Assembly (NCBI GenBank): GCA_047495785.1
Contig: JBLDXI010000004.1
Coordinates: 2,480,001 to 2,544,000 of the forward strand
Direction of reading: 5' to 3'
DNA from: Lepidodermella squamata
Lineage: Eukaryota; Animalia; Gastrotricha
Length of the DNA: 64,000 nucleotides
Below the pieces are notes generated by a model that was given only the letters and a program-made list of their open reading frames with translations, did no database searches and was not told the origin of the DNA. This document shows, piece by piece, positions 340-38,206 of the stretch. Position 1 is the first letter of the stretch. Each line of letters begins with the position of its first letter. Both the position numbers and the translations under genes were made by a program.

Positions 340-911
340 AGTAGAGTACAATAGCCGGTCCTAGACCAAACCCAAGGAAAGTGAAATAATCAAAGAAATT
401 ATGATTTATAGGGCTATATGGTGTGAGTGTATTTCCAAGGGGGGAGTATTGGGTTTTGAAAAAACTGGGGGTTATCGAAAAAGGGTGTATGGCTGTGAAT
501 ATGATGTATTTACCGAGTGATTCGGCATACACCCTTTTTGAAAAATTGAGGGTGGGGCGGGGGAAATTGGCAATTAGGGGAAAAATAAATGGTGAATTTA
601 TAAAAAGCGAAGAGATAATGAGGGTGCAAAGGAGAGAAAGGGAGTAAATAAATTTGGGGGAAAATTTGGGGAACAAATTGCTGGGGAAATTATTTCGAAA
701 GGGAGCGTACAAGAGGTATAACAGAGGGTAGGGGGTAGGGGTAGGGGTAGGGAAAGGTGTATGGGTAAGGGTAAGGGTGAGAGGTGAGAGGTGGGCGAGG
801 GCTGGTGAATTTGGGGGAAATTCTGAAAAACTCTGGGGAAACTGTGGGGAAATTGTGGAAAAATTCTGGGGAAAGTATTTTGATAAGGAGGGTACAAGAG
901 GTATAACGGAG
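340..911 (+). repeat. Left terminal inverted repeat of A (572 bp)
   Basis: Reverse complement of 23330-23901; one mismatch noticed (G484 vs A); purine- and G-run-rich. Confidence 0.95.
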
Positions 912-2846: not shown

Positions 2847-3560
2847 TCAAACGTTAGATATTTTCATACAAAATTCAACAGTTATAGGTTTGCTGGACGA
2901 CATCATGATGCTGAAAGTGTCACCATTTTCAAACTGTTCTACGAAAGTACAGTATTCGGCTATATTTCGGATCGCGTCGTAGTCGAATGAAAAATATTTA
3001 GAAATTAAGACACTGCCGTTTTTCATGAAATCACAAGTGCAACCTGGCGAGACATTTCCCCAAATTCTAAACCAAAATTGCACATTAGCCAAAATGTTTT
3101 CGAGAAAAGACAACTCATCATTAATTTGAACCAGCAAAGTGTGGGTTATAACTCTTGTTACCGGCATTTTCGTTTGGTCATTCACATGACTCTCACCAAA
3201 GCATAAAAATGTTTGGCCATCAACGTATTGCTTGTTGACTACGTCAAAAAGACCTACGGGATACGCCACGTTTGTTATCCGACCACCATTCATGTCGATG
3301 GTTCTGTCATCAGCGTACTGCAGCGGCTTATACGATTCGATAAGTTGCCTGGATTCTTTTTCATTCAACGTGTTTTCTTCCACCCAAGATTTCGATGCTG
3401 CGTCATTTTCGAAAACGGGGCGGCCAAGATTTTCAATTTTGAAATTATTTGCGTTCATATTACCCATGAGCCCCTTCTTCCCATCGGCGCGTAGAAATAA
3501 ATCTGACCCATGCAAGCTTTCCGACCATTCGCTAGGAATAAAAATTGAACTAGATTTCAT
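2847..3560 (-). CDS. Putative virion fiber/spike protein
   Basis: Two copies of a tail-fiber/YadA-neck-like motif (MNANNFKIENLGRPVFENDAASKSWVE; IDMNGGRITNVAYPVGLFDVVNKQYVD); beta-rich C-terminus with MKNG...FENGDTFSI. Confidence 0.65.
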   Translation of the reverse strand: MKSSSIFIPSEWSESLHGSDLFLRADGKKGLMGNMNANNFKIENLGRPVFENDAASKSWVEENTLNEKESRQLIESYKPLQYADDRTIDMNGGRITNVAYPVGLFDVVNKQYVDGQTFLCFGESHVNDQTKMPVTRVITHTLLVQINDELSFLENILANVQFWFRIWGNVSPGCTCDFMKNGSVLISKYFSFDYDAIRNIAEYCTFVEQFENGDTFSIMMSSSKPITVEFCMKISNV

Positions 3561-3565
3561 TTCAA

Positions 3566-4039
3566 CTAAGTAATGATTAGATTTAATTTTTCATGCCAGC
3601 GTAAAATCGTATCCTTAGAACGGCCCAGAGGGATTTTATTAGCGATGTCTTCATAGCCCAATTTCATTGACAAGTACTTCAGCACAAATTCTACATTGAT
3701 CATATTTTTACCGGGAAATTCGGTGGAATAGAGCTTATCTATTTTCTGGAAGTTTGACATTATGTCATCGAGCTCATACCATTTGAGAATTAGTCCTAGT
3801 TTTCTGATTTTTGTCATGAGATGCCACTTCCGCTTGTAAGGTGGGGAACGGCTAACCCTTTGATAGTAATCTATGAAAGGGTATGCGATGGCACATTTTG
3901 GACAAAAGTTGATGTGGAGACTATGATCAATTTGCAACTGTGATGAGCACGTTTCACATTCTGTTTTAGAATGGCATTTCACACTCTTGTTTTTTATTTC
4001 GGCTAAAAGAGAGAGGCAATATTCGAATTCTTCGTCCAT
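3566..4039 (-). CDS. VLTF3-like (poxvirus A2-type) late transcription factor
   Basis: CxxC...CxxC zinc ribbon, YKRKWH, and KNMINVEFVLKYLSMKLG...IPL, matching the VLTF3 C-terminal pattern. Confidence 0.75.
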   Translation of the reverse strand: MDEEFEYCLSLLAEIKNKSVKCHSKTECETCSSQLQIDHSLHINFCPKCAIAYPFIDYYQRVSRSPPYKRKWHLMTKIRKLGLILKWYELDDIMSNFQKIDKLYSTEFPGKNMINVEFVLKYLSMKLGYEDIANKIPLGRSKDTILRWHEKLNLIIT

Positions 4040-4084
4040 AACCAGGAAAGCACTTACTACCTTTTACAAACAAAATATTTTGTC

Positions 4085-4208
4085 CTGATTCGACAAATTT
4101 GCTCTTTTTGGAGCCGACAATTTGAGAATTGCTCACTTACTTGTTTTCCGAAACCTTTCATTGTTCGTTAAAGGTTTCGGTATGCTCCTTACACTTCAAA
4201 TAATGCAT
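4085..4208 (-). pseudogene. Degenerate small zinc-ribbon gene (DUF5679-like)
   Basis: Reads MHYLKCKEHTETFNEQ*KVSENK*...GSKKSKFV, resembling MYCxKCKxxTxT...CGxKKSxFV but with stops. Confidence 0.45.
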
Positions 4209-4214
4209 TCTTTG

Positions 4215-4664
4215 CTAAGACATCAGATCTTTAAGCTTGATATCATTCATAATGGACCCGTCATTTGTGAAATCGAGGAGAATTTCAAGCTTATTGCGAT
4301 TTTTTGCCAGCTCAGACAGGAAGTAAACAACATAAAAACCGCACGCCACACTTTTAGTGTGCTGAATTTCATGAGTGGAATACCAAATGTCGCGATTACT
4401 TCGCCTCTCAATGACTTCATTGGGACAAATGAACCCAAAGCTGTCGAAATAGATTATTTCCCTATCAGTTACCTGCATTCCTACCCAGTGCGTTCCTCCT
4501 CCAAAATCATCCAAGTTGATTACATAGTATCCATTTTTCAAATGTATAGGCAAGAGATGCCTGGGGTAACATCCATTGTACTTCTTCCCAACTCTCGAGT
4601 ACATCATTTTGTCAATATCCGAATTCGAAAGTGGGAAGAAGCGCCCTAGTTTTTTGACTCCCAT
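4215..4664 (-). CDS. Adenain-like (C5) maturation cysteine protease
   Basis: VINLD..GTHWV, YFDSFG, IQ....ACGFY (His-Asp-Gln-Cys catalytic residues). Confidence 0.93.
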   Translation of the reverse strand: MGVKKLGRFFPLSNSDIDKMMYSRVGKKYNGCYPRHLLPIHLKNGYYVINLDDFGGGTHWVGMQVTDREIIYFDSFGFICPNEVIERRSNRDIWYSTHEIQHTKSVACGFYVVYFLSELAKNRNKLEILLDFTNDGSIMNDIKLKDLMS

Positions 4665-5275
4665 GGTAAATACACTCCATTTCCCTTATTCGCCTTGAAC
4701 AATGTAGGTAAAAATGTCCCTAGCAGGCTAGCAACTAGTGGAACAACGAATGAGCCACCCTTTTGCTCAATATCGCGATCAATCGAAAGTTTACTGCCCA
4801 GTGGCAATAAATTCTTATTTTCTAACATATCGACCATTTTGACTAGTTCATTCAAATCCTCTTTTGGAACTGATAGTTGTACGTTGGTCTCGTTTACGCC
4901 CTTCCCCGCTAATTTGTTACCGATCGCGTTGGTTGCGCCATTTATCAGCCCTGATACTGCACTCAGGGCCAAAGGTGCAGCAATCGTTGCGGCTTTTGCA
5001 AGTATGGGCAGGATGGGAAGTAGGCCGCCTGATTGGTTTTTCTTCAGTTGTGATAAACTAAGCTTCAATTGAACACCGGTATCGTTGGCTTTGTGCTTCT
5101 CTACTTTGTTTATTTGAGTTTGGGTAAGCATCAACTTGCGTAAATTTTCGTTTTGGTGAATAACCTGTTTGCTAAATTTAAGTGTTATTGACTTTTTGTT
5201 CTTCACCGCACCCTGGAGTTTCTCAAGCTGACTATCCGTCAGGGGCAATTCGTATTCGAAATACTTATGGCTCAT
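4646..5275 (-). CDS. Virion core protein precursor (adenovirus pX/pVII-like)
   Basis: SGGLLPILPILA and KGGSFVVPLVASLLG motifs; GxG/GG protease-type sites; basic N-terminus. Confidence 0.7.
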   Translation of the reverse strand: MSHKYFEYELPLTDSQLEKLQGAVKNKKSITLKFSKQVIHQNENLRKLMLTQTQINKVEKHKANDTGVQLKLSLSQLKKNQSGGLLPILPILAKAATIAAPLALSAVSGLINGATNAIGNKLAGKGVNETNVQLSVPKEDLNELVKMVDMLENKNLLPLGSKLSIDRDIEQKGGSFVVPLVASLLGTFLPTLFKANKGNGVYLPWESKN

Positions 5276-5300
5276 TTACCGCTAGATTAGAAATTTTGCA

Positions 5301-6680
5301 TTAGACGCTGGTAAGACTAATGTCAACAGAGTCATGCTTGTAGTTGAAGCATATCTCCTTTTCCCTTTCAATGAACGAATAAATTACAAGAGGCTTATTC
5401 ACCGCACCGACCGTCGCTTTGAATACTACAGAAACAGTGTTATCTGCTCGAGAGTTGTAAATGGAAGTAGCATCTACGTCGTCCAAGCAAAAGCAAAGAA
5501 TTCTGTACAAGTTGCAGAATTCCATGTACGAAATCTGACATCCCGTATTCAGACTTTCCCTATCGCTGTTCTGGTGCATATTCTGTTTTATGTAATTGTA
5601 TAACCGGTGAGCTTTCAGCTTAGCAAAAGAAACATTGGATTCATTAAAGGCTTCTTTGTTATTAATCAAAAGGGAATATGAAGTAACGTTCCACGTGTTA
5701 TATATCTGCGTGAGTTTCTTCGGATATTCCTCGTCTGAGTAATCGGGGCAAAGAACAATATAAACCCAATTGGGTTTCCTTATTTCAGTGCTGATTGTGT
5801 ACTGAATATTCGTGGTATTAGCAGCAAATTGACAGGACTGATATGGATCAATCGATATCCATTTATGAATTTTAGTGAATCCCTCGTTGAACTTTTTCAT
5901 TATTGAAAGTTTCTGTTGGTTCATGAGCGTTACTTCCGGGATGTACATATTAGCCCGATTGAAATAATAAGTTAATCCTTCAGCTGTATCTTTATCAGCC
6001 GCGGCAATCACATAAACCAAAGGTCGATTATAGCTTGGGGTGAGAATAATCCTAAATCGAGACTTCGTGAAAATTCCGTGATATGAATTGAAAAAGGGCA
6101 AATCTTTCAGATATAAAGTGACGGTGGCCTCAGCAGATTTAACATAACTGCTTCGCGTTATCAAACCCTTGTTAGCTGCAGCTTTCGAAGCATCGAAAGT
6201 GTCAGCCGTCACATCAGCAATTAGCGTTGTGCTTCCCAAAGCCAACGGGCAGTCTTTCGAAAACAACACTTCTTCCCCTAAACTATTGGCGTACTCAGGA
6301 CTCCATTTCAAAAGGAAATTGATGTTGGCCCAATGTTCGAGGAACCGCAGCTCTTCGATTTTGTGATCCGAATCCGATATTTGAACTTCAATATTGTCAA
6401 ACAGGCTCAACACGTGATTCCGAATGGCATACTTGTCAGTATTCACGAACGCGGCTCCATTCTTCCTTTTAATTTGCAATTGAAACTCCAAGTACCCCTC
6501 TCTGACTAGTAAATAATTGTCTTTTAGGTTGTAGCTGGACAATATTAATTTCGAGGGTTGTGAATTTTGATCTTGAGTGAAATTCTGTGCTGGCGTTTCC
6601 GTCCATGTCTTTTTCTCAAAGACCCGATCTTGAATTTCAGTAGTCTCGAAAATGTTATTGACGATCTCTTGTTGAAGCAT
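5301..6680 (-). CDS. Major capsid protein (double jelly roll), intact
   Basis: 459 aa, beta-rich; SLFDNIEVQI, YIPEV, RKPNWVYIV; position in the morphogenesis block. Confidence 0.85.
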   Translation of the reverse strand: MLQQEIVNNIFETTEIQDRVFEKKTWTETPAQNFTQDQNSQPSKLILSSYNLKDNYLLVREGYLEFQLQIKRKNGAAFVNTDKYAIRNHVLSLFDNIEVQISDSDHKIEELRFLEHWANINFLLKWSPEYANSLGEEVLFSKDCPLALGSTTLIADVTADTFDASKAAANKGLITRSSYVKSAEATVTLYLKDLPFFNSYHGIFTKSRFRIILTPSYNRPLVYVIAAADKDTAEGLTYYFNRANMYIPEVTLMNQQKLSIMKKFNEGFTKIHKWISIDPYQSCQFAANTTNIQYTISTEIRKPNWVYIVLCPDYSDEEYPKKLTQIYNTWNVTSYSLLINNKEAFNESNVSFAKLKAHRLYNYIKQNMHQNSDRESLNTGCQISYMEFCNLYRILCFCLDDVDATSIYNSRADNTVSVVFKATVGAVNKPLVIYSFIEREKEICFNYKHDSVDISLTSV

Positions 6681-7011
6681 AATTTACCAAAGGATTAGAT
6701 TTTTTAAATTCAACTTTTTTGAAACCAGAGCCCGAATATGAACTTATATTATTTTTAATTTTGCGTTCGAGCTCCTCTATGGCTTTAAGATTAGTTGTTT
6801 CATGACTAGGCAGAACTTTTTCAGCCAACTTCGTTGCTACAAAACTTCCCACTTTATCTCCAGCAGCTTCTGAACCAGATTTCAGCGCTGCTTTGACAAA
6901 ATTTTGGGCTGGTTCAGCTGATACTGCTATTATTTTCGATAAAATGTGTTTACCAACGTCGACGAAACCTCGGCCAGAAATGTAAACGCGCTTTCTTTTT
7001 CGATTATTCAT
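6655..7011 (-). CDS. pVI/cupiennin-like membrane-lytic peptide precursor
   Basis: NLS-like RKRKR, then ISGRG followed by amphipathic FVDVGKHILSKII; later GSG site. Confidence 0.7.
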   Translation of the reverse strand: MNNRKRKRVYISGRGFVDVGKHILSKIIAVSAEPAQNFVKAALKSGSEAAGDKVGSFVATKLAEKVLPSHETTNLKAIEELERKIKNNISSYSGSGFKKVEFKKSNPLVNYASTRDRQ

Positions 7012-7035
7012 AATTCAGCAATAACTAGATAAGCA

Positions 7036-7782
7036 CTAGATTATATCTATACCTATCCCCCACCTACTTTCGACGAAGTAAATCTCGTTTCCCTCTTGAT
7101 TGGTGAGCCAGACTCGAATATTCTGCGTGTTCGCGTTTGTGCACATTAGGAACCTTTTCTCGTTCGGGATGTAGTTGACGTGTTCCCCAAATTTTTTGTT
7201 GATAGGGCAAGTAAAAATAACTGTGTTATATTCGGGGATGACGCTATTATTAACCACGGAACAATGAACAAACATTGTATCCAGCCCCATAGTCACATCA
7301 GGGACGTTTTGAGAATTGAAATCGTGGTCGTAGGAGCCTACGTTGACCCCGAGAAACCGGGCCATAGCGTCAGTTTCTACCATCAAACGATAATTCTCCG
7401 CAATCCTAACGCTAATGCAACTGAATACGGGGTTGACACTAATATTGATGCCGAAAATTTCTGCTCCTTTCGCGCTGTCAACGGCAAAATGTCCGTTTAA
7501 CTTCATCTGGAAATGCAAATAATTGTTAAAATCTTGGAAGGTGTACGTTCCATCAGGAAAAACTGTTTCGAATATTTCTTCGTTCAGCGAGTATTTCAAT
7601 GTATTGTTTCCGTAACGAGCAGAAACGTTGTGAAACGTATCGCTGAAATGAATATAACTAACTGCAATTCGCCTTCCAGTGAAGTCTATTTTATCATTGA
7701 GGTATCGGTCGATGGTGTTATTTCGAGAACTTCGATTATTTGAAAGATACTCTAGTGGTAAGAAAATCGGGCTCAGACTCAT
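7036..7782 (-). CDS. Minor capsid (penton) protein
   Basis: FHNVS, FPDGTYTFQDFNNYL, MFVHCSVV, IRVWLTNQEG: Maverick penton motifs. Confidence 0.85.
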   Translation of the reverse strand: MSLSPIFLPLEYLSNNRSSRNNTIDRYLNDKIDFTGRRIAVSYIHFSDTFHNVSARYGNNTLKYSLNEEIFETVFPDGTYTFQDFNNYLHFQMKLNGHFAVDSAKGAEIFGINISVNPVFSCISVRIAENYRLMVETDAMARFLGVNVGSYDHDFNSQNVPDVTMGLDTMFVHCSVVNNSVIPEYNTVIFTCPINKKFGEHVNYIPNEKRFLMCTNANTQNIRVWLTNQEGNEIYFVESRWGIGIDII

Positions 7783-7806
7783 TTTATTTGGAAGCTAGAT
7801 AATTCT

Positions 7807-8961
7807 CTATATACTACAAACTGTTGTGTATTCTTCCTTCGTTATTTTTCCATGCTTCAGCAACAAGTCCGCTATAGACACTAATTCGTTCCTAATTGCT
7901 TCATTGTTATTACCTGCTTTAATTTCTCCTAAACAATGCAGCATACGCTTTTGTGCATCCTGTAAGGTCACAAAAAGCGCAGAACCGGACTGCCTAGAAA
8001 TTGCGAGTTCAGATCTTACGTTGGAGTGAGGTTTCGGTTGGTATCCGGTCCTACGACAAATTTCTTGGAAGTGTGAAAAATCTTCTTGGGTGTATTTGTA
8101 CTTTTTCGGTTCATATCGCTTCAAAATGAGATTTCTCACACCATCGGAAATTTGCTCATCAAACACTCTGCTTTGGTTCTTTTTTCTGACGCGGAGCCAC
8201 CCGTCGAGTAAGTCTTCCTTGCGTACATAAAATCGCCCAAACCTTTGGAGATTTTTTGGGATTGGTTTAGTGAAACCGTCGCCTAGTTGTTTGCTTTTTA
8301 ATGCTTCGCGATAGTTCCTCAAAACTGCGATGTCGCGCTTAATTCTATTATAGTCTTCTGAATCTCTTTTCCCCGCTCGTGTGAGACTAGAGAGCCTGGC
8401 CCCCAATACCTGTCTGTTGTATGTGGCCAAACTCACTACGGCTTCTTCTATGTCCTCTTGTTTAATTTGCTCAATTGTTGGGAAATTATGCTGACGGATG
8501 ATAGTGTTCATTTCGTCTGTGGTAAATGTCCCATCTTGAGCATCAGGTTCCTTCGACGAGTCAGAGTCTTGATCACTCTCATCATCTTGCGAATTTCGCG
8601 ACGAGGCTAACCTATTTTTCACAGGACTCTCATACTCAAGTTTAGGAATTTTCAGAGCCACAGGGGATGCAGAGGCAGAAATAGTTGGAATGCCATGTTT
8701 AGCTATTAGTGGTTTCTTTTTTACAACTAATTCCTTAATAGAATTTTGCAAACTACGTATGGCTTCAGTGGTCGGTCGTTGGTTGATTGCTGTTTGCATG
8801 GTCGCCAGTGGGCTGGGTTCCGTTTCCATCCCAAATTTGTGCTTGAGCGCATAAGAATCGTGACTTGCAAGCGCGAGGTTTTTATCATACAGTTTTTCTT
8901 CTCTATCTAATTGCTCCAAAATTTTTATCTGCTCGGGGATCGTGAGTTCTTTGATCGGCAT
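7807..8961 (-). CDS. Conserved Maverick hypothetical (probably virion) protein
   Basis: C-terminal RMLHCLGEIKAGNNN...ELVSIADLLLKHGKI motif; ATG at 8961 matches the B start. Confidence 0.75.
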   Translation of the reverse strand: MPIKELTIPEQIKILEQLDREEKLYDKNLALASHDSYALKHKFGMETEPSPLATMQTAINQRPTTEAIRSLQNSIKELVVKKKPLIAKHGIPTISASASPVALKIPKLEYESPVKNRLASSRNSQDDESDQDSDSSKEPDAQDGTFTTDEMNTIIRQHNFPTIEQIKQEDIEEAVVSLATYNRQVLGARLSSLTRAGKRDSEDYNRIKRDIAVLRNYREALKSKQLGDGFTKPIPKNLQRFGRFYVRKEDLLDGWLRVRKKNQSRVFDEQISDGVRNLILKRYEPKKYKYTQEDFSHFQEICRRTGYQPKPHSNVRSELAISRQSGSALFVTLQDAQKRMLHCLGEIKAGNNNEAIRNELVSIADLLLKHGKITKEEYTTVCSI

Positions 8962-8993
8962 TTGGTTTACCACTAGATTTTCTCGATCAGATT

Positions 8994-9639
8994 TTACCGA
9001 ATTAACCGAATGAGTTCAGTGTTGAAGAATTCAAGATAGAGTATCAGGTCATGGGAAAAATTCCGTTCCGACTCATTTAAACGGAAAACATTCTAGTTTA
9101 ACCCAGCTTAAACCAGCAAATATTGCGATTTCCGGTGTAAATTACGAAATCCGGCCATCGGAATATTACCGAATGAGTTTAGAGTTGCTGGAAGGATTCA
9201 AGACACGAGGCTGAAGGATTTTTTGAGAACGGAGGGCCGGTATTACGCCTCTTGGCTCGCTGCTAACTGGCCGGAGGGCCGGTATTACGCGAGCCTTTAG
9301 CTCGCTACTAGCGGTCCTACGGACCGGTACTCGGGCGGTGTTCGACCACCGGCTAGCTCCAGTCCCAGTCTCCCCGCTACTTCGCGCACTGGGCTAGCGG
9401 CCCTTAGGGCCGGTATGCTCCTTCGGAGCTAACGGGTCTTTTGACCCGGTACGCAGAACACAGAGTATCAGGCCATGGAAAATAATGCGTTTAGACTCAT
9501 TTTAACGGTAAACTTTCTAGTTTAACCCAGCTAAAAACAGCAAATATTGCTATTTCCGGCGAAAGCGGACGTAAATCCGGCCTCAGAAGTATTGAGCGAG
9601 TTTGGGAATTTACCAGGGGCGTGCTCAGGCCCCAGCTGA
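8994..9639. other. A-specific 646-bp non-coding insert: two ~140-bp direct repeats flanking a GC-rich hairpin cluster
   Basis: Absent from B (22-bp gap there); repeats at ~9038-9180 and ~9463-9603; flanked by ATCAGATT at 8986-8993 and 9640-9647. Confidence 0.75.
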
Positions 9640-10340
9640 ATCAGATTCGCCGACAAAAATTCCCGTATAATTTGCTCTAAGCTTCAGCGATTTATGCTTT
9701 ATCACGCTGTCTATTATAAAAGAACCGTGATTATTATTGGACGAAACGCTCAATTCGTACTTTTTCAGGAACCCAGGCTTTTCTATTTCTGCTGCATAAA
9801 TTCTGTGAATTGTTTGCAGTTCGCGTCCATCATTCAGCTTTTTCAAAACAATAAACTGCGCATTGTCGCGAATTATTTTCGGAATTTTGAAATATGACTG
9901 ACTCAAATAAACCACGGAGCAATTGTACTTTCGCGACCTGATGTAGAGATCGCCGATGTATTTCTCTTGGTTTTTAGCATTTTCCAAACAAATGTCATCA
10001 AAGACATACAAGTGCTGATACTTCTTGTCAAGCTTATCAAGGGGCACGACATCCGCAATATCAGTGGAAAAGTGGATAAGTGACTCGTTTACCCCTTTCA
10101 TTTTCAACTCGGCTTCTTTAGCTTTCTGCAAATTTATCAAAAACTGGTATTTGTCTTCATCCAAGGTTTTAGAGTAAATGTGCAGCTTATGAAAAACAGA
10201 ATGATATTGAGCAAATCATTAGTTTTCCCGCTATTACTTGGACCGATAATAATTGTTCGGAAACAATGCTGCGGGTAAAAAGGGGAAATATTGAGTGGCG
10301 TAGACTCGCTTTTTGGAATTATTTCATCAAAATTGATCAT
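9625..10340 (-). pseudogene. A32-like packaging ATPase, frameshifted
   Basis: Walker A GPSNSGKT, Walker B YVFDD, SRKYNCS, LSQSYF; 7-bp deletion near 10200 relative to B. Confidence 0.92.
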
Positions 10341-10351
10341 TTTAATTCAGG

Positions 10352-10365
10352 TTAGAAATTTCTAA
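10352..10365. promoter_or_regulatory. Palindromic candidate bidirectional late promoter TTAGAAATTTCTAA
   Basis: Perfect palindrome between the divergent ATPase and PLA2-integrase genes; conserved in B at 29773-29788. Confidence 0.6.
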
Positions 10366-10386
10366 TGCTGTGATAAGCATTGTGAA

Positions 10387-12160
10387 ATGTTCGACGGAAT
10401 TATCAATAACTTGCCGGTAGAATTGCATCTTCCCTCTTACCCGGCCAAAGGCGAGCATCGTCCCAACGGATCATTCAACAACACGCAGAAATACAGTTAC
10501 GCTGGGCCAGGTACAAATTTCGTCCAGCGCATGAAGGAAGGATATAAGGGAATCAATGATTTGGACGAAGCAGCTAAAACTCATGACTACTACTATTGGA
10601 AATTCAAAGATCGTGAAATGCGGACAAGAGCAGACAGACTTCTAGCCGAAGAAGCTTTCAAGATAGCCAACGACGATTCTAAAAACGGATACGAGAGAGC
10701 CATGGCTGCCTTCGTTTTCAAAACCTTTCACGAAGGAGGCTTAGCCGATAGATTCCATGGAGGCCGAGTGCCTACAGGATACGAGCTTTCCATTCGGGAA
10801 GGCGACTTCCATGACGGTCAAGGGCTGACGGGCCATGAGCTTCCGCCTCAAGAACGCGAGTGCTGCGGAGAAGGATACGAATTGCGGCAAAGGAAACCTG
10901 TGGATTATACTGGAACAAAATATATCGGCGAGGTTCCGCAACCAAAACGATCAAGGAAAAAAGCAGAAAGCAGTGCCAAAACAACGCAAGCAGTCCCAGC
11001 GTCGAAAAAAGAGACGGATGCAGATCAAAGCTTAAGCAAAGTAAAATTCCACGTTCTGTCCGAGGAACTTCACAAACCGGCCCGGAAGCATTTTCCCCGC
11101 AGGCGAGTGTATATTCACGACATCGACGAAACCTGGGGCATGGATATCGTGTTTCTGAGCGATTTATCCGAAGAAAATAATCAGCATAAGTATTTACTCA
11201 CGATTATAGATTGCTTTTCCAAATATGCGTGGGCTGTCGCACTTAAGAGCAAGGATGCGAAAAATGTTTTTGATGCATTTTTGTCTGTGGTCCGAGAAAG
11301 CAACAGGAAGCCCAAAAATATGTGGGTAGATCAAGGCAGTGAATTTTACAATGCTGTGTTCACGAAATGGCTAAAAGCTAATAATGTTAACAGGCAGGGT
11401 GCGAATTACAGGGGTGCTGGGGTGTCGCGACACCCCAGCTCGGGGACCTTAATCAGAGGAAGGTTGAAAAAACCCACAGGGGGGACCCTTTGGTTTCTTC
11501 GGCTGGGTCTTAGAAAACAAGTAGAAAACACCTCAGCTCCCAGATCCTACTTCGCACACTGTTAACAGGTATTCGACTTATGAGAATTTTCACAATCCCA
11601 TAATAGAAAGGTTCAACCGAACTTTGAAAACCAAGATGTGGAAAAGGTTCACACTGGACAACACCCGTAACTGGGTTGGCATGCTCGATAGCTTGGTCAG
11701 TGATTATAATAATTCTCTGCATCGGTCGATAGGAATGACTCCCATCGAGGCCAGCGATCCCAAAAACCACAACAAAGTCCATTCTAGGCTGAATCCCCCG
11801 GAACGAAAAGAAAAATTGGAAAAGCCGAAATTTGCGCTGGGTGACGTGATTAGGATAAGCCGCGTAAAAGGCGCATTCGAAAAAGGGTATCACCCTTCAT
11901 GGAGCGAAGAACTATTGCGAGTTGTAAAAATAAATGACACATATCCGAGAACATACCAGATAGAAGCAATGGACGGCGAGCCTGTTTTCGGTAGTTTTTA
12001 CGAGCAAGAAATGCAAAAATCGAAACAGCAGGTAGATGACGTGTATAGAGTTGAGAAAATTTTGGATAGGAAGAAAGTCAAAGGAAAAGAGTTGGTTTTA
12101 ATAAAATGGTCGGGTTATGACAAACCCACATGGGAAAATGCAGAAAATGTTATTGATTAA
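10387..12160 (+). pseudogene. PLA2-retroviral-like integrase-chromodomain fusion, interrupted by a MITE
   Basis: YAGPGT...DEAAKTHDYYY (parvovirus-type PLA2); WGMD, IDCFSKYAW, VDQGSEF, IERFNRTLK (DDE core); YRVEKIL...LIKWSGYD..TWE (chromodomain); frame restored by removing 11395-11569. Confidence 0.92.
11395..11561. mobile_element. 167-bp hAT-like MITE
   Basis: 8-bp TSD TTAACAGG; TIR CAGGGTGCGAA / TTCGCACACTG; related copies at ~49175 and ~58100. Confidence 0.9.
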
Positions 12161-12320
12161 TGATTCAAATTATCATGCAAGGCATATGGAACCGTCACAT
12201 TTCATATGCCCTGATGGTAAGGCTAAAATCCCTCGTAAATTCCTACTTTATATGTAGAAAATTTTTCACCAGACTTTGTGGAGAGCATTTCACGAAAAAT
12301 ATTCTGAAGAATCAAAGCTG

Positions 12321-12566
12321 CTAAACCTTGTTGTTAGAAATAATTGCTTTGATTTGTTTATACTCCTCTACCATTGCTTTTCGCTTCTCATAATACTTCT
12401 TTTGCGCAGTTTTCAAAGCTGACTTATAGCCTTCTTTTCTTTCTTCATCTGTTCTATATTTTATCCATCTTGGATAACTGGCACATCCACTTGTGATGAG
12501 TTGGGTCTTCTGACTCTGTTCTGCTGGCTGAGGCATGTCATTAACTTTATGAATTCCGACAGACAT
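12321..12566 (-). CDS. Small basic putative DNA-binding protein
   Basis: KYRTDEERKE...KKYYEKRK; syntenic with and similar to B 31351-31644. Confidence 0.65.
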   Translation of the reverse strand: MSVGIHKVNDMPQPAEQSQKTQLITSGCASYPRWIKYRTDEERKEGYKSALKTAQKKYYEKRKAMVEEYKQIKAIISNNKV

Positions 12567-12827
12567 AGGATTTATATTATTATTTATATAAATATATAAG
12601 AAAATATTTTTTTAAGTATTGTTTCATCATTCTCGACTGACTGTGGGGTCTGTTGAAAATTGCCACCTGCCGAGCTTTAATTCTCCTGGGAAAAATGAAA
12701 ATTTAACTCACTGATCCATAACAGCTATCCATAATCTTAACTGGCGCGTTGAAAAGGCTTAAAAAAATAATCTCCTCACAATATATATAGATATATAAAT
12801 CCTCGATTTTCCCTCGTAAATTCCACA

Positions 12828-15800
12828 ATGCTTAGAAAAGAACAGAAAATCCCTCATCCCGTGGCTCCCCACAGGCAAATCATAGTTAATGGAACAGCGT
12901 TCACCAAGTTTTTGAGTCAAAACTATTACTATGACAAAAGACGAAAAGTCTTGAAAGAAGGAGTAAAGCTTCCCGATGGATCCGTAATTCCTGTCGATTC
13001 ACCCAAGTTACGCCGTATGCTGAAAACTGGTAGTTATTTTCATGATAGACAAAATAGGAAACTGATGGAGTACGCCAATAATAATACGATAGGTACCGTT
13101 TTCGACCCAGAAAATGGTGCAGAAATCCTAACCGGTAGTCAAAGATACGAAGAAATAAAGAAAAATAACTATGTTTTAAAAGGGCGAGGATTCGTCCAAA
13201 TCCCCGTTCGGAGGGCCGAATCAGTCATTAACCCCACAACAAATCGCCCAATAAAGATTGGAGGCGCGGCATTTAACCGGCTGATCCGCGCGGGTTACAT
13301 TTACATTGCTTCAATGAATAGTTTCGAAAAATCAGATTACGTCCGCCAACTGCGACCAGATGACTTCGGCACTTTCGTAGAAGTCACGTCAATGCTCAAG
13401 CTGTTACCAATAGTGCAAGGCTTCGATTATTTGAAATACACCTCTGTGATACGCCCGAAAGTGATTGATGAATATCGACGACAATTGAATTCTCTCGGCC
13501 CAGTTAAAGTCGTGCTTCATGCTGAGGTGGAATTCATTCACAAAATAACGAGGAAGTGCATCACAATTTTTAAATGGAGCTCTTCAAGCAACGCGGCACC
13601 TTTAGTCACAAATGCGGCGGACATTCCCGACGTTGTCGACGGCCTCTTTTCCATGCTTGCAGACGGCATTCGAGACTTTGAAGAGAGAGGTAGTCAGTTC
13701 GTATTTAATAAAATGGTTGACACAGATGTCAACACCTTCCGGTATCATCCGACTGCCGGAGGGAGCTACATTCCCACGCCGGATTACATCAAACGGAAAC
13801 ATGCTGTAGTCAACGTTAAAAACTCTGACGATAAATGCATTATTTGGAGTATTTTAGCCTGTAGGTACCCGCCAAAAGATCACGTGGACCGAGTCAGCAA
13901 TTACAGGTGGTGTTTGAATAGTGTGCAATACGATGGTATAGATTTTCCCATAAAATATGAAGATATCGATAAATTAGAGGATTCAAATGTTTTAAATTTG
14001 AATATAATTGAATATGATGATGAAAAACGAACATTCTCCCCCTTTTACATATCCAAACGGAGTTATCACGAGGAAATTAACCTGTTGCGTACAACTGATA
14101 ACGAAAAGGCCCACTATAGCTGGATCAAAAACCCTAGTGCGTTGTTTGCATCCACTAACAAGAACGAACACGCGCGTTTTTGGTGTTTCAAGTGTTTTAC
14201 CAGCTTCACTTCAGAAGAAGTGAGACAAAACCACATTCTGGATAACAAATGCGTAGGTTTCGAAAAAAATATACGAGTGCATTTTCCAAAAAGCAATACA
14301 ATTAAATTTAATAACGTATACAAACAGCTTCGCTTGCCTTTTGCTTTTTATTGCGACATCGAGTGCTTTCTTGTTGACATTAACAAAAACCACGGGACTA
14401 ACTCGATTGCGTATCAACACCACCGGGCAAATTCGTTCGGGTGCTATTTCAAAAGTGACATCGCGTCACTTCCCTCGAGATACCAATCATTTGAAAACTG
14501 CGCCAGCTTCCTTGAGTATCTTTTGTCTAAGACAACGCACCTAATCAAGTTTCTCACTTCAACAAATGTTCCAATGAATCTGAGCGAAACCGAGGAAAGG
14601 TCCTTCAGGTCGGCGTCAATTTGCCATATTTGCAGCTGCCCGGTTTCCGAAGACGAAAAAGTTCGAGACCATGATCATCTAACAGGCAGATTCCGTGGTG
14701 CAGCTCATAATTCGTGTAATTTAGAGTACAGCTACAAAAAAACGGCAATACCCGTGATTTTCCATAATTTGAAAGGGTATGACAGTCACTTGATTCTGAA
14801 ATCTCTGGGGGAAGTGCTTGTAGAGTTCAACAAGGGTAGGTTGAAGAAAAATCTCAAGCCGCTGAAAATCAACATTATTGCGCAGAGTTCCGAAAAATTC
14901 ATCGGTTTCTCGGTTGGCCGGTTGCGATTCATCGACAGTTTTAATTTCATGTCCACTGGCCTGGACCAAATGGTTGAGAATCTGAAGAAGTCCGGGGGGA
15001 AATTTGAACATTTGAATTCGAACTTTTCTGAATTCACAGATGAACAGCGATGTCTGCTGTTGAAAAAAGGGGTTTATCCTTACGATTATATGAATTCCCC
15101 CAGGAGGTTCCAAGAAACTATGTTGCCAGCTAAGGAACATTTCTCGAGCAAGTTAAAATCGAACAGCTTGGTGACCGATGACATCGGCAGAATAGAAGAT
15201 GCGCCTGTTCCGATCTCCGACGAGGAATACAATCACGCTAAAAACGTGTGGGATAAATTAAAATGCAAAACCATGAAGGATTATCACGATGCATATTTGA
15301 AAACTGATGTCCTTCTCCTAGCAGATTGCTTCGAAAATTTCAGAAGTATTTCGATGAAGAGTTACTCGCTGGATCCTGCTCATTTTTTCACCACTCCAGG
15401 GCTAACATGGGACGCCGGAAAAAAGTACACCAAAGCCTCTATCGGTATTTTGAATAACAATGAAATGTTGGAATTTGTCGAAAAAAGTGTGCGTGGGGGC
15501 ATAAGTGGCGTAGTTCTTAGGCACGCGAAAGCTAACAATCCTTACATGAAAAATTATGACAAGTCAATGCCACACTCTTATATCACATGCTTAGACGCAA
15601 ATAACCTGTATGGCTGGGCAGCTTCTCAAATGCTTCCGATCGGAGACTTCGTGTTTGTCGATGCCTCTGTTTTCACCCAAGACTACATTTTGCGCCTGAG
15701 CGATGAAGCTGAATTTGGATACATGCTCTCAATCGACGCAATGTATCCGCGTAGACTTCACGACGCTCATGACGCGTTTCCATTTTTCCCAGAACATACG

Positions 15801-17405
15801 GAATGCGCTCCAAGCCCCTACATGGAATCAATGATGGCCAAATTGAAGATGCCTAATCCAGATAATGGACCTAAGCTAACTCAGAATTTATGCCACAAGA
15901 CGAACTACGTGGTTCATTATAGAAATCTGAAGCAAGCTCTGGAGGCAGGCCTGATTTTGACGAAAGTCCACAAAGTTCTCCGCTTTAGACAGTCCAAATG
16001 GTTGGAGCCCTATATCGACTTGAACACATCGATGAGGAAGAACGCGAAAACGGACTTTGACAAGGACTTTTACAAGCTGATGAACAATTCGATCTTTGGA
16101 AAGACATGTGAAAATGTCAAAAAGCGGATTGACATCAAGCTGGCGACAACCCCATGCGAGCTGCAAAAGCTGATTAACAGACCGAATTTTAAAAATGCGA
16201 CTAGGGTTAGTGAGAGCTTATACTCAGTAGACATGGCTAGAACCTCCATACTTTACGATAAGCCCATAATTGTCGGAGCGTGTATTTTAGAATTGAGTAA
16301 GCTTTTGATGTATGATTTTCACTATAAAGTAATTAAAGCCCAATACGGAGACAAGGCCAAATTATTATTCTTTGACACAGATTCGCTTTGTTACCACATC
16401 GAAACCGACGATATATACGCGGACATGGAAAATTGGAAAGAACATCTCGATTGCTCGGCGTACCCGTTGAACCATAGGCTGCATTCCATGGAAAACAACA
16501 AGGTAATTGGGAAATTCAAGGACGTGTCGACCGGAGTGATTGAAGTAACGGGTGCAGATGGCGCGAAAAGGCCAGAAAATATTCTGGAACAAATAACTGA
16601 ATTCGTCGGCCATCGTTCAAAATCGCTAGCGTTTACTACGGAGGTTGTCAGCGCTGTTACTGTTGAAAGGAACTCACCCAACCAAGTAGTAAAAGCCAAA
16701 GGAGTTGTTAAGCATTGTATCGGAAATATAATTAATTTTCAAAACTATAAGAGTTCCTTATTAAACAGTGAAATTGAAAGGGTTCGATTTCGGCAAATTC
16801 GATCCGTGAATCACGAGTTATACAGCATTCAAAGTACCAAAGTTGCCCTTTGTCCTTATGACGATAAAAGGTGGGTTAAAGCTGACGGGTTCACGTCATT
16901 CGCCCACGGCCATTTCCGGATAGCCAAGGAGCATGAACAATTTAGGGTGGATCAGCTTGGTAAGAAATTGGACACGTTGAAGTCCTTATCGAGTGCATGC
17001 CAATATTCACGCATCAAATTGAAAAATATTTTATACGATAATTTGAGTAAAGAAAAATGTACGGACATCGCTTCATTTTGCCGAAATTTTGATGCAACTT
17101 TCAAAAAAATTGGGCACGAACTCGAAGAATTAGACAACTTGTGGTTTCAATCGGGGCAACGCCCAGCCGACTATCTACCTCAGGCGCATGTTATAGCCGA
17201 CATAGAAGACAGAGAGGTACTTGAAACTTGGCTGAAAAATAACTCCACACACGATTCTTCTTTAGAATGCTTGCTTCGCGAAGGATTGTTTCCCAAAAAG
17301 ATTCCAAAAATAGCGGTAAATGAATCATCTTTGAAAGAACCACTCTCGGTTATTGCGAAACGTGCACAAACGCGGGCCAAAGAGAAGGAGGGCTCGGGTC
17401 TTTAA
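12828..17405 (+). CDS. polB: Protein-primed family B DNA polymerase (pPolB), intact, with EndoVII-like insert
   Basis: Exo YCDIEC, FHNLKGYD; motif A LDANNLYG, motif B KLMNNSIFGK, motif C DTDS; CHIC...RDHDHLTGRFRGAAHNSCN; DDKR. Confidence 0.97.
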   Translation: MLRKEQKIPHPVAPHRQIIVNGTAFTKFLSQNYYYDKRRKVLKEGVKLPDGSVIPVDSPKLRRMLKTGSYFHDRQNRKLMEYANNNTIGTVFDPENGAEILTGSQRYEEIKKNNYVLKGRGFVQIPVRRAESVINPTTNRPIKIGGAAFNRLIRAGYIYIASMNSFEKSDYVRQLRPDDFGTFVEVTSMLKLLPIVQGFDYLKYTSVIRPKVIDEYRRQLNSLGPVKVVLHAEVEFIHKITRKCITIFKWSSSSNAAPLVTNAADIPDVVDGLFSMLADGIRDFEERGSQFVFNKMVDTDVNTFRYHPTAGGSYIPTPDYIKRKHAVVNVKNSDDKCIIWSILACRYPPKDHVDRVSNYRWCLNSVQYDGIDFPIKYEDIDKLEDSNVLNLNIIEYDDEKRTFSPFYISKRSYHEEINLLRTTDNEKAHYSWIKNPSALFASTNKNEHARFWCFKCFTSFTSEEVRQNHILDNKCVGFEKNIRVHFPKSNTIKFNNVYKQLRLPFAFYCDIECFLVDINKNHGTNSIAYQHHRANSFGCYFKSDIASLPSRYQSFENCASFLEYLLSKTTHLIKFLTSTNVPMNLSETEERSFRSASICHICSCPVSEDEKVRDHDHLTGRFRGAAHNSCNLEYSYKKTAIPVIFHNLKGYDSHLILKSLGEVLVEFNKGRLKKNLKPLKINIIAQSSEKFIGFSVGRLRFIDSFNFMSTGLDQMVENLKKSGGKFEHLNSNFSEFTDEQRCLLLKKGVYPYDYMNSPRRFQETMLPAKEHFSSKLKSNSLVTDDIGRIEDAPVPISDEEYNHAKNVWDKLKCKTMKDYHDAYLKTDVLLLADCFENFRSISMKSYSLDPAHFFTTPGLTWDAGKKYTKASIGILNNNEMLEFVEKSVRGGISGVVLRHAKANNPYMKNYDKSMPHSYITCLDANNLYGWAASQMLPIGDFVFVDASVFTQDYILRLSDEAEFGYMLSIDAMYPRRLHDAHDAFPFFPEHTECAPSPYMESMMAKLKMPNPDNGPKLTQNLCHKTNYVVHYRNLKQALEAGLILTKVHKVLRFRQSKWLEPYIDLNTSMRKNAKTDFDKDFYKLMNNSIFGKTCENVKKRIDIKLATTPCELQKLINRPNFKNATRVSESLYSVDMARTSILYDKPIIVGACILELSKLLMYDFHYKVIKAQYGDKAKLLFFDTDSLCYHIETDDIYADMENWKEHLDCSAYPLNHRLHSMENNKVIGKFKDVSTGVIEVTGADGAKRPENILEQITEFVGHRSKSLAFTTEVVSAVTVERNSPNQVVKAKGVVKHCIGNIINFQNYKSSLLNSEIERVRFRQIRSVNHELYSIQSTKVALCPYDDKRWVKADGFTSFAHGHFRIAKEHEQFRVDQLGKKLDTLKSLSSACQYSRIKLKNILYDNLSKEKCTDIASFCRNFDATFKKIGHELEELDNLWFQSGQRPADYLPQAHVIADIEDREVLETWLKNNSTHDSSLECLLREGLFPKKIPKIAVNESSLKEPLSVIAKRAQTRAKEKEGSGL

Positions 17406-18444: not shown

Positions 18445-18469
18445 ATCCTTTGAAAAAATGAAAAATTAA

Positions 18470-19604: not shown

Positions 19605-20504
19605 ATGCTGCTGAAGGTTATCGCGGGAGACATCAGAATTGCACTATTTACCATCTACGACTCGGATGACGACAGAAATTTAAATCGTCTCGAAACAAAA
19701 ATAAGTAAGTTCTTCGGCAAGGCTTTGCGAAGAGATGCGTTACTAGAGTGGAATGACCGTGACCATGTTGCCCTCATTCTTGACGAGGAAGACCTCGCAG
19801 CTGCTGTGGCAGCCTTCAAAGCTGAAGATCGTCTAGTTCTTCGCCTGGTTTCAGTTCTATCGTTTCCATTGGTGACAAAGCTTGATGATGCAATGGGAAG
19901 TTTGACTTTGAGCGATTCATCTGAGATGGAATGCGTGATAAACAGATCGATATTTGCTGCAGCACATCCTTCTCCTGCATCACCTAAGACATCGTCTTCA
20001 CTACCTAATGCCGCTCAAGCAAGTTCAGCGAAATCAATAACATACTGCAAGGTAATTTTCCGTATTAAATGCTACAAAAGTTATTTATAATCGTTTTCAT
20101 GTTGTTAAGATTGACACTCCATTACCATTGGCACTCCGTTCATCACTTCCCCACGACATTGGGAGTACTCGCTTGACGACTCCTGTTACAGAGCCAGAAT
20201 CAGACCCTTCCGAGGTGACTTTCTGCTTGGATACTTCTTTCTCACTGTTTAATTTCCATTTTAGATTGATGACATTCTGCTGAATGAACAGCAACGACGA
20301 CGAGATGAAATCCTTCTTCAAATCAGAAAGCACTATCCTAAGAAGAGCGACACTCAAATAATTGACATAGCAGTGGCCGTTTTCAACAAGATGGGAGTGG
20401 GCATTGGTAAAGAAACCGTATCAAATTTCATCAAACGCAAGACAAAGCCACAAAAGGAAACTGTGGAAAAATTTGAAAAATTTGTCACTTTACTAAAGCA
20501 GTGA
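19605..20504 (+). CDS. Spliced PB1-domain plus XRE-type HTH protein (exons 19605-20051, 20110-20214, 20265-20504)
   Basis: N-terminal LKV and OPCA-like WNDRDHVALILDEEDLAAA; two phase-0 GT-AG introns; C-terminal GVGIGKETVSNFIKRKTKPQKETVEKF. Confidence 0.7.
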
Positions 20505-20726
20505 ATGAGTGAGTGAGTGAGTGAGTGCGAAACTGCTGCGAAAGATGTGAAAGATTGGAAATGTTTTGCTTTAACCTTCATGGCATTCTAGTTTTATTGA
20601 AACTCCAGATTACGCTGGGTTGCAATCTTTCAACATTACCTAGTGTCGATGAATAAATCTAACAAAACTCAAAATACAATATTTTCGTCAAGTGATATTT
20701 CATTCTCAGTTACCAAATCGAAAGAT

Positions 20727-20997
20727 CGGTTCGACTCAACATGATATACACATTGCAGGCTATCGATTGATATATGGCTCTTTGGATTCTTGCTATCCTT
20801 TCATCTCACCCCATGTCGTTGAAAAATGAGAAAAACGCAAAATATATCAATTTCTTGATTACGTAATATCTTATTTCCAGTTGCAAAATCAGAAAATCGG
20901 TTCGACTCAACATGATATACACATTGCAGGCTATCGAATGATATATGGCTCTTTGGATTCTTGCTATCCTTTCATCTCACCCCATGTCGTTGAAAAT
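20727..20997. repeat. ~100-bp direct duplication
   Basis: TCGGTTCGACTCAACATGATATACAC...GTCGTTGAAAA at ~20727 and ~20897. Confidence 0.85.
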
Positions 20998-21044
20998 TAG
21001 GAAAAAGGGTATTCAAAATCTAGGTTTTTATGGCAAAATGAAGT

Positions 21045-21934
21045 TTAGGTTTTTGGCATTTCATGACGCAAAAATAGTCCCGTTTGAAAGCTATAAATGC
21101 AATTTGTTGACGAGCGCAACTTTTTGCTATGATCTTTCAGATGACCATTATCAATCTTCACCTCAGTTTGCCACAAATCTTCATAGTTTTCAACCAGATG
21201 ATACTCCCAAAACTCGGGCAAATAATATGTTAGCTCTCGATTGGAATCCGCCTTGAGCTGCACGGTTTCCGTTGTCAGTTTGGTATTTTCCTAAAAATAT
21301 TTGACATAATTTGAGAGTTTGATTTGCCCATCTAAAAAAAATTACGTCAAATCGCGACTCCAGCCAAAACTCTGCGAATGGCCACTCCAAAATCTTCGTT
21401 TGCCATTCATAGATGGAAATGTGACTAATTTTGCTGGTCTTTGGATTTCTTTCGAGTCCGATCACCCACGTATTTTGCTGGCCATTGGCACCTTTGACCT
21501 TGACTCGCCTCTGGTCGGGTTGGTTTGCTATAGCTTCTCCTCGCTCAAATAGTTCTTGCATTTTAGCAAATTGTGCTGCTTTGGACATCAAGTCAATGTC
21601 GTCGTCGAACGGGATGATGTCCTTCTCCCGCTTAAATCCTGTGCAAAAACGTGTGCAAAAACACCTTTAATATAACTGTGTAGTGTGTCTTACCCAATAA
21701 TGTCCCAAATGCTGGAACTAGTTTGAATTCATTATCGAAACTTCCCAAGAAGTTTTGCTGCAACCGTTTAAGGAATTGAGCTTGTGATCTTCGCTGTCCA
21801 TAGTCAAGGTAGAGGCAGCATAAATGCGGTGCGGGGTTATGCTTACCCAGCTTTTCCCATTCATCATCGTAACGACGTTTTATTTTTCCAGCATCCGCGG
21901 AATAATAATTGCCTGAGCAGTTGAACTCAGCCAT
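21045..21934 (-). CDS. Spliced LicD/fukutin-family phosphotransferase (5' and 3' limits uncertain)
   Basis: Removing GT-AG intron 21639-21693 gives PAFGTLLGFKREKDIIPFDDDIDLM (LicD signature); a second ~55-bp intron leads to LPEFWEYHLVENYEDLWQT. Confidence 0.8.
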
Positions 21935-23329: not shown

Positions 23330-23901
23330 CTCCGTTATACCTCTTGTACCCTCCTTATCAAAATACTTTCCCCAGAATTTTTCCACAATTTCCCCACAGT
23401 TTCCCCAGAGTTTTTCAGAATTTCCCCCAAATTCACCAGCCCTCGCCCACCTCTCACCTCTCACCCTTACCCTTACCCATACACCTTTCCCTACCCCTAC
23501 CCCTACCCCCTACCCTCTGTTATACCTCTTGTACGCTCCCTTTCGAAATAATTTCCCCAGCAATTTGTTCCCCAAATTTTCCCCCAAATTTATTTACTCC
23601 CTTTCTCTCCTTTGCACCCTCATTATCTCTTCGCTTTTTATAAATTCACCATTTATTTTTCCCCTAATTGCCAATTTCCCCCGCCCCACCCTCAATTTTT
23701 CAAAAAGGGTGTATGCCGAATCACTCGGTAAATACATCATATTCACAGCCATACACTCTTTTTCGATAACCCCCAGTTTTTTCAAAACCCAATACTCCCC
23801 CCTTGGAAATACACTCACACCATATAGCCCTATAAATCATAATTTCTTTGATTATTTCACTTTCCTTGGGTTTGGTCTAGGACCGGCTATTGTACTCTAC
23901 T
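23330..23901 (-). repeat. Right terminal inverted repeat of A (572 bp)
   Basis: Reverse complement of 340-911; the ORF track shows mirror-image ORFs at both ends. Confidence 0.95.
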
Positions 23902-24334
23902 GACAGTCTTTCGAAAACAACACTTCTCCCCCTAAACTATTGGCGTAATCAGGACTCCATTTCAAAAGAAAATTGATGTTCGCCCAATGTTCGAGGAACC
24001 GCAGCTCCTCGATTTTGTGATCTGAATCCGATATTTGAACTTCAATATTGTCAAACAGGCTCAACACGTGATTCCGAATGGCATACTTGTCAGTATTCAC
24101 GAACGCGGCTCCATTCTTCCTTTTAATTTGCAAATTAAACTCCAAGTACCCCTCTCTGACTAGTAAATAATTGTCTTTTAGGTTGTAGCTGGAAAATATT
24201 AATTTCGAGGGTTGTGAATTTTGATCTTGAGTGAAATTCTGTGCTGGCGTTTCCGTCCATGTCTTTTTCTCAAAGACCCGATCTTGAATTTCAGTAGTCT
24301 CGAAGAGGTTATTGACAATCTCTTGTTGAAGCAT
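23902..24334 (-). pseudogene. Element B major capsid gene, 5' part, disrupted by A
   Basis: Near-identical to the A MCP N-terminus up to FSKDC. Confidence 0.95.
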
Positions 24335-38160: not shown

Positions 38161-38206
38161 AATGATTGAAAATATATTTATTTGAAGTGTAAGAAGATTT
38201 GATATA

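Follow-up and report, generated by a model that had tools for sequence, protein, structure and literature searches.

A 64,000-nt stretch of Lepidodermella squamata DNA (the window) carries, inside a 23.6-kb Maverick, a predicted three-exon gene whose product is likely a very divergent LicD-like enzyme with borderline formal membership of that family. Our preferred reading, to which we give a probability of about 0.42, is that the product serves the Maverick as a soluble accessory enzyme, which would transfer a phospho-alcohol (e.g. phosphocholine) from a CDP donor to an intracellular host acceptor.

The 23.6-kb element is a Maverick. Its terminal inverted repeats of 572 nt are 100% complementary and the 6-bp target duplication GACAGT stands on both sides. 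These repeats, a target duplication within the 5–8 bp that PMC10748475 gives for Mavericks/Polintons, and a retrovirus-like integrase are features of that group.

340..911, plus strand: left terminal inverted repeat of the Maverick, target duplication at 334-339
2850..17405, no strand assigned: Maverick core, with a fibre-like ORF, a VLTF3-like ORF, an adenovirus-type protease and likely capsid genes; further genes are an A32 ATPase, a PLA2-like domain plus an integrase-chromodomain, and a polymerase-like ORF with an endonuclease VII domain
23330..23901, minus strand: right terminal inverted repeat of the Maverick, target duplication at 23902-23907

In Pfam, the integrase of this Maverick matches rve (E 9e-14) and a chromodomain (E 5e-8), and its gene is interrupted by a repeat of ~170 nt. 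This dispersed short repeat (11395-11567) has a short flanking duplication and related copies at 49169-49316 and 58100-58251. The polymerase-like ORF of 1544 codons has the endonuclease VII match as well as exonuclease, A and B motif patterns of family B polymerases; the motif C pattern has no match in this ORF, polymerase family searches returned none, and no viral relative of the C-terminal part was found. The packaging ATPase matches Pox_A32 (E 6.5e-4), and the maturation protease candidate matches Peptidase_C5 (E 0.0045). Capsid genes are labelled from ORF size and position, and family searches gave no capsid match to the candidate ORFs. At 2850-3590 on the minus strand, a candidate fibre gene shows phage tail-fibre-type repeats (PHROG 2710, E 8e-12), and an array of 7-nt units occupies 929-1329, just inside the left terminal repeat.

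The element is inserted in what is likely the major capsid gene of an outer, related Maverick, which comprises 1-339 and 23902 to about 38200 and whose own terminal repeat was not found within the window. The structural blocks of inner and outer Maverick are 85-96% alike at the DNA level, their polymerase-like ORFs are 49% identical, and the outer packaging ATPase matches Pox_A32 with E 2.7e-7. Downstream of the polymerase-like gene, both carry an orphan ORF (17965-18465 and 37692-38177, both minus strand; 29% identity) for which Pfam gave no match. No copy of the LicD-like gene is present in the outer Maverick across 23902-64000. One ORF of the outer Maverick is broken up by ~2.4 kb (25986-28406; inverted ends 26020-26076/28315-28371, 91%), likely a nested DNA transposon. 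At 45863-47275 lies an element of ~1.4 kb whose inverted arms measure 319 nt (97%).

The LicD-like gene is found in the variable arm between the core genes and the right terminal repeat, on the minus strand from 21934 to 21045. Its three predicted exons comprise 780 nt, i.e. 259 codons and a stop.

21694..21934, minus strand: exon 1 (predicted), with the start codon, a ~45-residue N-terminal module, the first helix and G-T-L-L-G
21639..21693, minus strand: intron 1 (predicted), 55 nt, GT-AG, phase 1
21346..21638, minus strand: exon 2 (predicted), with the P-F-D-D-D-I-D metal-binding motif and, in W-P-F-x-E, a candidate third carboxylate
21291..21345, minus strand: intron 2 (predicted), 55 nt, GT-AG, phase 0
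21045..21290, minus strand: exon 3 (predicted), 81 codons and a stop, with a P...L...Y stretch aligned with the LicD C-terminal P...YG motif

Exon 1 runs from the ATG at 21934 through 80 open codons and ends in F-G-T-L-L. Intron 1 starts with GTAAGA and ends with a T-rich tract and CAG, and its removal joins the FGTLL frame to IIPFDDDIDL. Among 97 GT..AG pairs (40-150 nt) tested near this junction, 11 are in frame to DDDIDL and three give the whole motif, while a GTAAG donor occurs only in the pair 21693/21639. Hence the claim of the sequence-only reading that an intron at 21639-21693 splits the LicD signature is borne out by the donor, by the restored frame and by relatives that break at the same site, and a second 55-nt intron and three relatives can now be added to it. 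The stop at 21047-21045 can be reached only with intron 2 spliced out. Exon 3 is supported by its open frame, by a match to a contig of run X1 at 21207-21265 and by motif-level alignment; a search among proteins of 44-142 residues returned no homologue for it. Although the integrase gene of this Maverick is interrupted, the LicD-like gene keeps its three exon frames open and its two predicted splice sites intact. The introns are host-like: a flanking lectin-type gene has two predicted introns that resemble them, one of 55 nt, which also opens with GTAAGA, and one of 52 nt. This flanking gene, at 55060-58000 on the plus strand, has C-type lectin domains, AbfB (E 1e-15), Ser/Thr-rich tracts and a Cys-rich repeat. 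A stop codon lies 14 codons upstream of the ATG of the LicD-like gene, and since AG-ending pyrimidine tracts occur upstream of the ATG at about 21960-21950, there is room for a missed upstream exon.

Two further features lie next to the gene.

19605..20504, plus strand: neighbouring predicted three-exon gene of the same arm, PB1-like at its start and HTH-like at its end, which converges on the LicD-like gene
20620..21006, no strand assigned: two repeat copies, 171 nt apart, between both spliced genes and related to the array 36533-37542

In the neighbouring gene, the matches to PB1 (first exon, E 0.011) and HTH_3 (last exon, E 0.051) are both below the cut-off, a low-complexity linker is present, and the introns of 58 and 50 nt were chosen by eye. 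Its PB1-like start is reminiscent of nematode Maverick cargo, which has ubiquitin-like N-termini. A nested transposon around the LicD-like gene was considered and rejected, as no long inverted pair flanks the gene.

A word-index search with exon 2 returned 21 candidates with a sole match, P0001 (E 5e-11). A family profile of P0001 plus exons 1 and 2, searched against 1.84 billion representative proteins at E <= 0.001, gave five matches: P0001, P0002 (3e-14), P0003 (5e-8), P0004 (E 2.3e-4) and P0005 (E 2.8e-4). P0005, an Ig-like repeat protein matched by chance, was discarded. P0004, the best match outside the family, has three domains and is clearly a LicD protein (Pfam LicD, 162 bits). P0001 aligns with exon 1 at 58% identity and with exon 2 at 41%; precisely at intron 1 it has an unrelated insert of ~18 residues, and it stops 7 residues past the intron 2 site. 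P0002 matches exon 1 only and ends just past the intron 1 site, and P0003 spans only the greater part of exon 2, its similarity breaking off at the intron 2 site; because the first residues of exon 2 are absent from P0003, its intron 1 acceptor may differ. Judged from their protein sequences, P0001-P0003 look like ORF calls on unspliced DNA that share the intron sites. Each is a single record (two from Logan, one from JGI/IMG) on a contig of 1.2-2.0 kb in an unannotated assembly.

The gene is known from one Maverick copy only, and no further loci of the family were found in viral contigs, metagenome contigs or phage records. Run X1 contains the gene stretch almost unchanged and, as it is possibly the source of the window itself, does not count as independent support. 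Two other X1 contigs match the coding stretches at 21596-21640 (5 other letters) and 21207-21265 (8/59), i.e. at 86-89%, so the organism of X1 likely has further members of the gene family. The depth of X1 contigs was not taken as copy number, and their breaks near both introns were not counted, since breaks occur every few hundred bases; a single X2 piece (151 nt, depth 2) was left unused.

How close is the protein to LicD? Exon 2, scanned alone, reaches 19.8-20.3 bits (E 9e-4) against Pfam LicD (PF04991), for which the cut-off is 22.6, and its only NCBIfam match is the LicD-type enzyme Mycoplasma Mf1 (E 0.02). For comparison we assembled our own LicD set, in which 158 loci from plasmids, viral contigs and genomes yielded 142 motif-filtered rows and 104 after clustering; the set includes one P0004 domain and is biased, having been gathered from three bacterial seeds. 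On our own LicD HMM, exon 2 alone scores 16.8 bits, exon 1 plus X plus exon 2 scores 22.5 and all three exons score 22.0, with 11.3 bits as the best of 2000 shuffles (1953 reported); exon 1 thus adds 5.7 bits and exon 3 gives no gain. By hhalign, the four-row family profile matches the LicD profile with 95.9-96.7% probability (E 4e-10 to 6e-9) over a block of 66-70 columns, about residues 45-114, which spans the intron 1 junction and contains the N-terminal helix, the G-T-L-L-G and the P-[WF]-D-D-D-x-D block of LicD/FKTN/FKRP. The P-F-D-D-D-x-D block and its spacing to G-T-L-L-G are as in the collected LicD sequences. Outside residues 45-114, the link to LicD appears at motif level only. Alignment A1 of the family against the single protein P0004 gave only 15% in hhalign, and PDB sequence searches gave no row with P0001 and one chance row with alignment A4.

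At motif level, D-D-D-x-D and W-P-F-x-E are invariant in all three exon 2 sequences, and the [DE]h[DE]h of the second strand reads D-I-D-L or D-L-D-T in each of them. The hG[GS]-type motif, at the G-T/G-S column of LicD, is F-G-T in the window protein and Y-G-T in P0001 and P0002. MAFFT places the Glu of W-P-F-x-E, in a predicted strand, in the third-carboxylate (Asp) column of nine viral LicDs, and aligns exon 3, which alone scores only 0.1-0.3 bits, with the viral LicD P...YG motif. Pairwise scores of W-P-F and exon 3 against single viral LicDs are mostly within the shuffle range; with L075, 55/300 shuffles (W-P-F) and 241/300 (exon 3) were as high. The DxD aspartates are kept, and the alignment makes the Glu of W-P-F-x-E the likely third carboxylate. 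The assignment to the LicD/fukutin family, as made in the sequence-only reading, therefore holds in part: a LicD-like gene, probably of the nucleotidyltransferase fold, stands, while exon 2 stays below the Pfam cut-off and significant similarity is limited to residues ~45-114.

A quick tree of 41 rows comprised the window protein, P0001, 11 viral LicDs, 7 further LicDs from viral contigs, 20 bacterial/archaeal rows of the 104-row set and one P0004 domain; animal LicDs were barely sampled, and P0002 and P0003 were excluded as fragments. The window protein and P0001 are joined with a support of 100, the branch length of the family is 5.99, and the tree resolved neither a gene donor nor a sister LicD lineage. 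As to the earlier view of the gene as captured cargo, the host-like introns fit, and the 41-row tree points to no donor.

Fold models were obtained for P0001, an intron read-through without exon 3, rather than for the window protein. The first was made from family rows only and is LicD-free (mean pLDDT 56); the second, with nine LicD rows added (pLDDT 64), leans to LicD by construction. In VIA searches, the first model matched Cid1 (Z 4.4) and FKRP (Z 4.3, rmsd 4.0, 117 aligned), and its first 28 rows, with Z at most 4.4, presumably all have the nucleotidyltransferase fold. With the second model FKRP came first (Z 6.2, rmsd 3.7, 119 aligned) and Cid1 scored 5.6, and in both searches FKRP was tied within ~1 Z unit with RNA uridylyltransferases. 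Foldseek found no match at E <= 0.001 in either library for the P0001 models; in BFVD, five of the top eight rows of the second model were giant-virus proteins named LicD (best E 4.5e-3). Altogether, the models suggest that P0001 resembles nucleotidyltransferase folds, FKRP among them.

Golgi enzymes of the fukutin/FKRP type have an N-terminal signal anchor. In the window protein, the best 19-residue hydropathy is 0.74, 0.15 and -0.04 for exons 1, 2 and 3, respectively. For 22030-22700, where the sequence-only reading had proposed to look for a signal anchor in upstream exons, the outcome is negative, the best value in any frame being 1.21. Indeed, no signal anchor was detected in the protein, in this upstream region or at the N-termini of P0001 and P0002. 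More hydrophobic stretches occur farther upstream, at 22779 and 23307, and nothing joins them to the gene. P0001 starts with M-A-E like the window protein and P0002 starts at about the same place, these starts being ORF calls, and the three proteins share ~15 invariant residues in the 45-residue N-terminal module. The 259-residue protein, with ~45 residues before the first core helix, contains neither an FKRP-type stem domain nor a C4 zinc-finger loop, and its four Cys are scattered (6, 39, 40 and one in exon 3). The enzyme, thus likely anchorless, would probably reside in the cytosol or nucleus, which makes a part in Golgi glycan building unlikely. A change of cell-surface glycans, for immune masking or superinfection exclusion, had been suggested; it would need a secretory-pathway enzyme and, as no anchor was found, this suggestion is not upheld.

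With this in mind, we propose that two metal ions held by the carboxylates would bind the CDP-alcohol, by analogy with FKRP and Mf1 as described in the accessible parts of PMC6965139 and PMC11982090. An acceptor hydroxyl of a host molecule would then take the phospho-alcohol and CMP would be released. A CDP-alcohol is the putative donor from family resemblance only, and the absent anchor, the lack of a glycan-building gene and the analogy with nematode Maverick cargo suggest an intracellular host acceptor. In animals, CDP-choline and CDP-ethanolamine are made on the cytosolic/nuclear side, so that a soluble enzyme would find its donor without synthesis genes of its own. Among 38 ORFs of the window, a Pfam scan found no glycosyltransferase or donor-synthesis gene. 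A host acceptor is favoured over the element's own particle because no glycan-building gene was seen in the element and because the gene lies outside the structural block, beside another predicted spliced gene. Given the very long branch, it would be a long-standing accessory gene of the Maverick rather than a fresh capture.

The same branch of 5.99 speaks against the alternative that a host-family gene was swept into the variable arm of one Maverick as a passenger of no use to the element. So do the exon frames and predicted splice sites, all intact despite the interrupted integrase, and the fact that 0/3 relatives come from an annotated proteome, which would fit genes hidden in repeats. Since the 55-nt introns are host-like, further family members are likely in X1, only a single Maverick-borne copy is known and the outer Maverick is without a copy in the window, we regard a passenger as no more than somewhat unlikely. 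Rather improbable, in our view, is that the soluble enzyme puts a phosphocholine-like group on the Maverick's own capsid or fibre proteins during assembly. Such a decoration would not require an anchor, and it would draw on the fibre-like ORF of the element (PHROG tail fibre, E 8e-12), on the giant-virus proteins named LicD among the top BFVD rows (5 of 8) and on LicDs in four GVMAG contigs among 75 viral loci, one of them fused to a family 25 glycosyltransferase. However, no glycosyltransferase gene that could build the acceptor is seen in the element, the LicD-like gene lies ~18 kb from the fibre-like gene and outside the structural block, and the close outer relative does without the gene within the window.

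The protein could also be a LicD look-alike that transfers NMP from NTP to RNA, a protein or a small molecule, perhaps as toxin-like selfish cargo. Significant similarity to LicD covers only ~70 residues, RNA uridylyltransferases, ANT(2'') and MenT toxins lie within about 1 Z unit of FKRP, and a toxin arose from a nematode Maverick cargo according to the accessible text of 10.1101/2022.07.12.499685. Yet P-F-D-D-D-x-D and G-T-L-L-G keep the spacing of the collected LicDs, and both the Pfam and the best NCBIfam match of exon 2 are LicD-type, which makes the look-alike clearly improbable. Most improbable of all appears a fukutin/FKRP-like enzyme of the secretory pathway that alters cell-surface glycans and so causes masking or superinfection exclusion. 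FKRP is the top VIA row of the second model, in the Golgi, FKRP and fukutin modify the glycans of dystroglycan (PMC6965139, in its accessible part), and the possible acceptor sites just 5' of the ATG would accommodate a missed exon. Against this, hydropathy peaks at 0.74 in the exons and at 1.21 in 22030-22700, neither of which shows an anchor; P0001 shares the M-A-E start and its position, and both the stem domain and the four-cysteine finger are missing.

The role of enzyme cargo for Mavericks is an open question in the field. Known enzyme cargo makes a short list (nematode proteases and kinases), to which a LicD-like phosphotransferase would add a new chemistry; were the gene a one-off passenger, the addition to this list would be modest. 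The characterised animal members, fukutin and FKRP, act in the Golgi; an anchorless form, kept across three or more diverged sequences, would suggest that phospho-alcohol tagging takes place in the cytosol or nucleus. As the protein is small and predicted to be soluble, donor and acceptor are directly testable. A broader picture, in which this is the first-seen member of a Maverick-borne soluble LicD family that is hidden by introns and repeat masking, tags host or capsid proteins inside animal cells directly with phosphocholine or a similar group, and moves between invertebrate species, seems doubtful to us.

The sequence-only reading knew of no LicD described in Polintons, and full-text searches (supplements outside their scope) for LicD with polinton, Maverick, mimivirus or giant-virus glycosylation agree, in that they found no publication. 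The accessible parts of PMC13137986, PMC8502044, PMC10748475 and 10.64898/2026.10.13.758929 contain nothing on LicD in Maverick-like elements, though for related viruses the last of these notes TET-coupled glycosyltransferases. LicDs of viruses are already known from annotated giant-virus proteins, and intron-bearing Maverick cargo has already been published, whereas LicD-type Maverick cargo was not found in print, as far as the accessible text of these sources goes.

Nematode Mavericks, in the accessible text of 10.1101/2022.07.12.499685, have intron-bearing cargo in a 2-5 kb region by a terminal repeat, such as wasp proteases and krma kinases with ubiquitin-like N-termini. As far as that text allows a comparison, the window shares with them an enzyme gene that has introns and lies, within a few kb of poor conservation, between the terminal repeat and the intronless core, as well as a neighbouring predicted gene with a weak match to PB1, a ubiquitin-like fold. 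It differs in the class of enzyme, in a LicD-like protein without ubiquitin-like domain and in the position of the gene on the polymerase side instead of the integrase side. Moreover, the nematode cargo is repeatedly associated with Mavericks and exchanged between species, whereas here we have one Maverick copy in one genome.

With LicD, fukutin and FKRP, which form Pfam PF04991 and group XXIII of PMC2794190, the protein shares G-T-L-L-G and P-F-D-D-D-I-D with LicD spacing, a likely third carboxylate and, to judge by the P0001 models, probably a nucleotidyltransferase-type fold. Unlike these enzymes, it has an exon 2 below the Pfam cut-off, a very long branch and a 45-residue family-specific N-terminal module in place of signal anchor and stem. 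FKRP requires Asp360, 362, 364 and 416, according to the accessible part of PMC6965139, and the likely third site here is a Glu where FKRP has Asp416. LicDs are annotated among the BFVD rows for Marseillevirus, Megaviridae, Dasosvirus, Terrestrivirus and Fadolivirus, and viral LicD loci in IMG/VR are L058, L066, L074 and L075. At L075 (5872-7242), a GVMAG protein begins with a hydrophobic N-terminus, after which a LicD domain and a family 25 glycosyltransferase are fused. These viral LicDs differ from the gene described here in that they read as single ORFs of large genomes, and several of them start with a hydrophobic stretch or carry a fused glycosyltransferase. What they have in common with it is a LicD-type gene in the genome of a DNA virus and, for L075, the W-P-F-x-acid motif.
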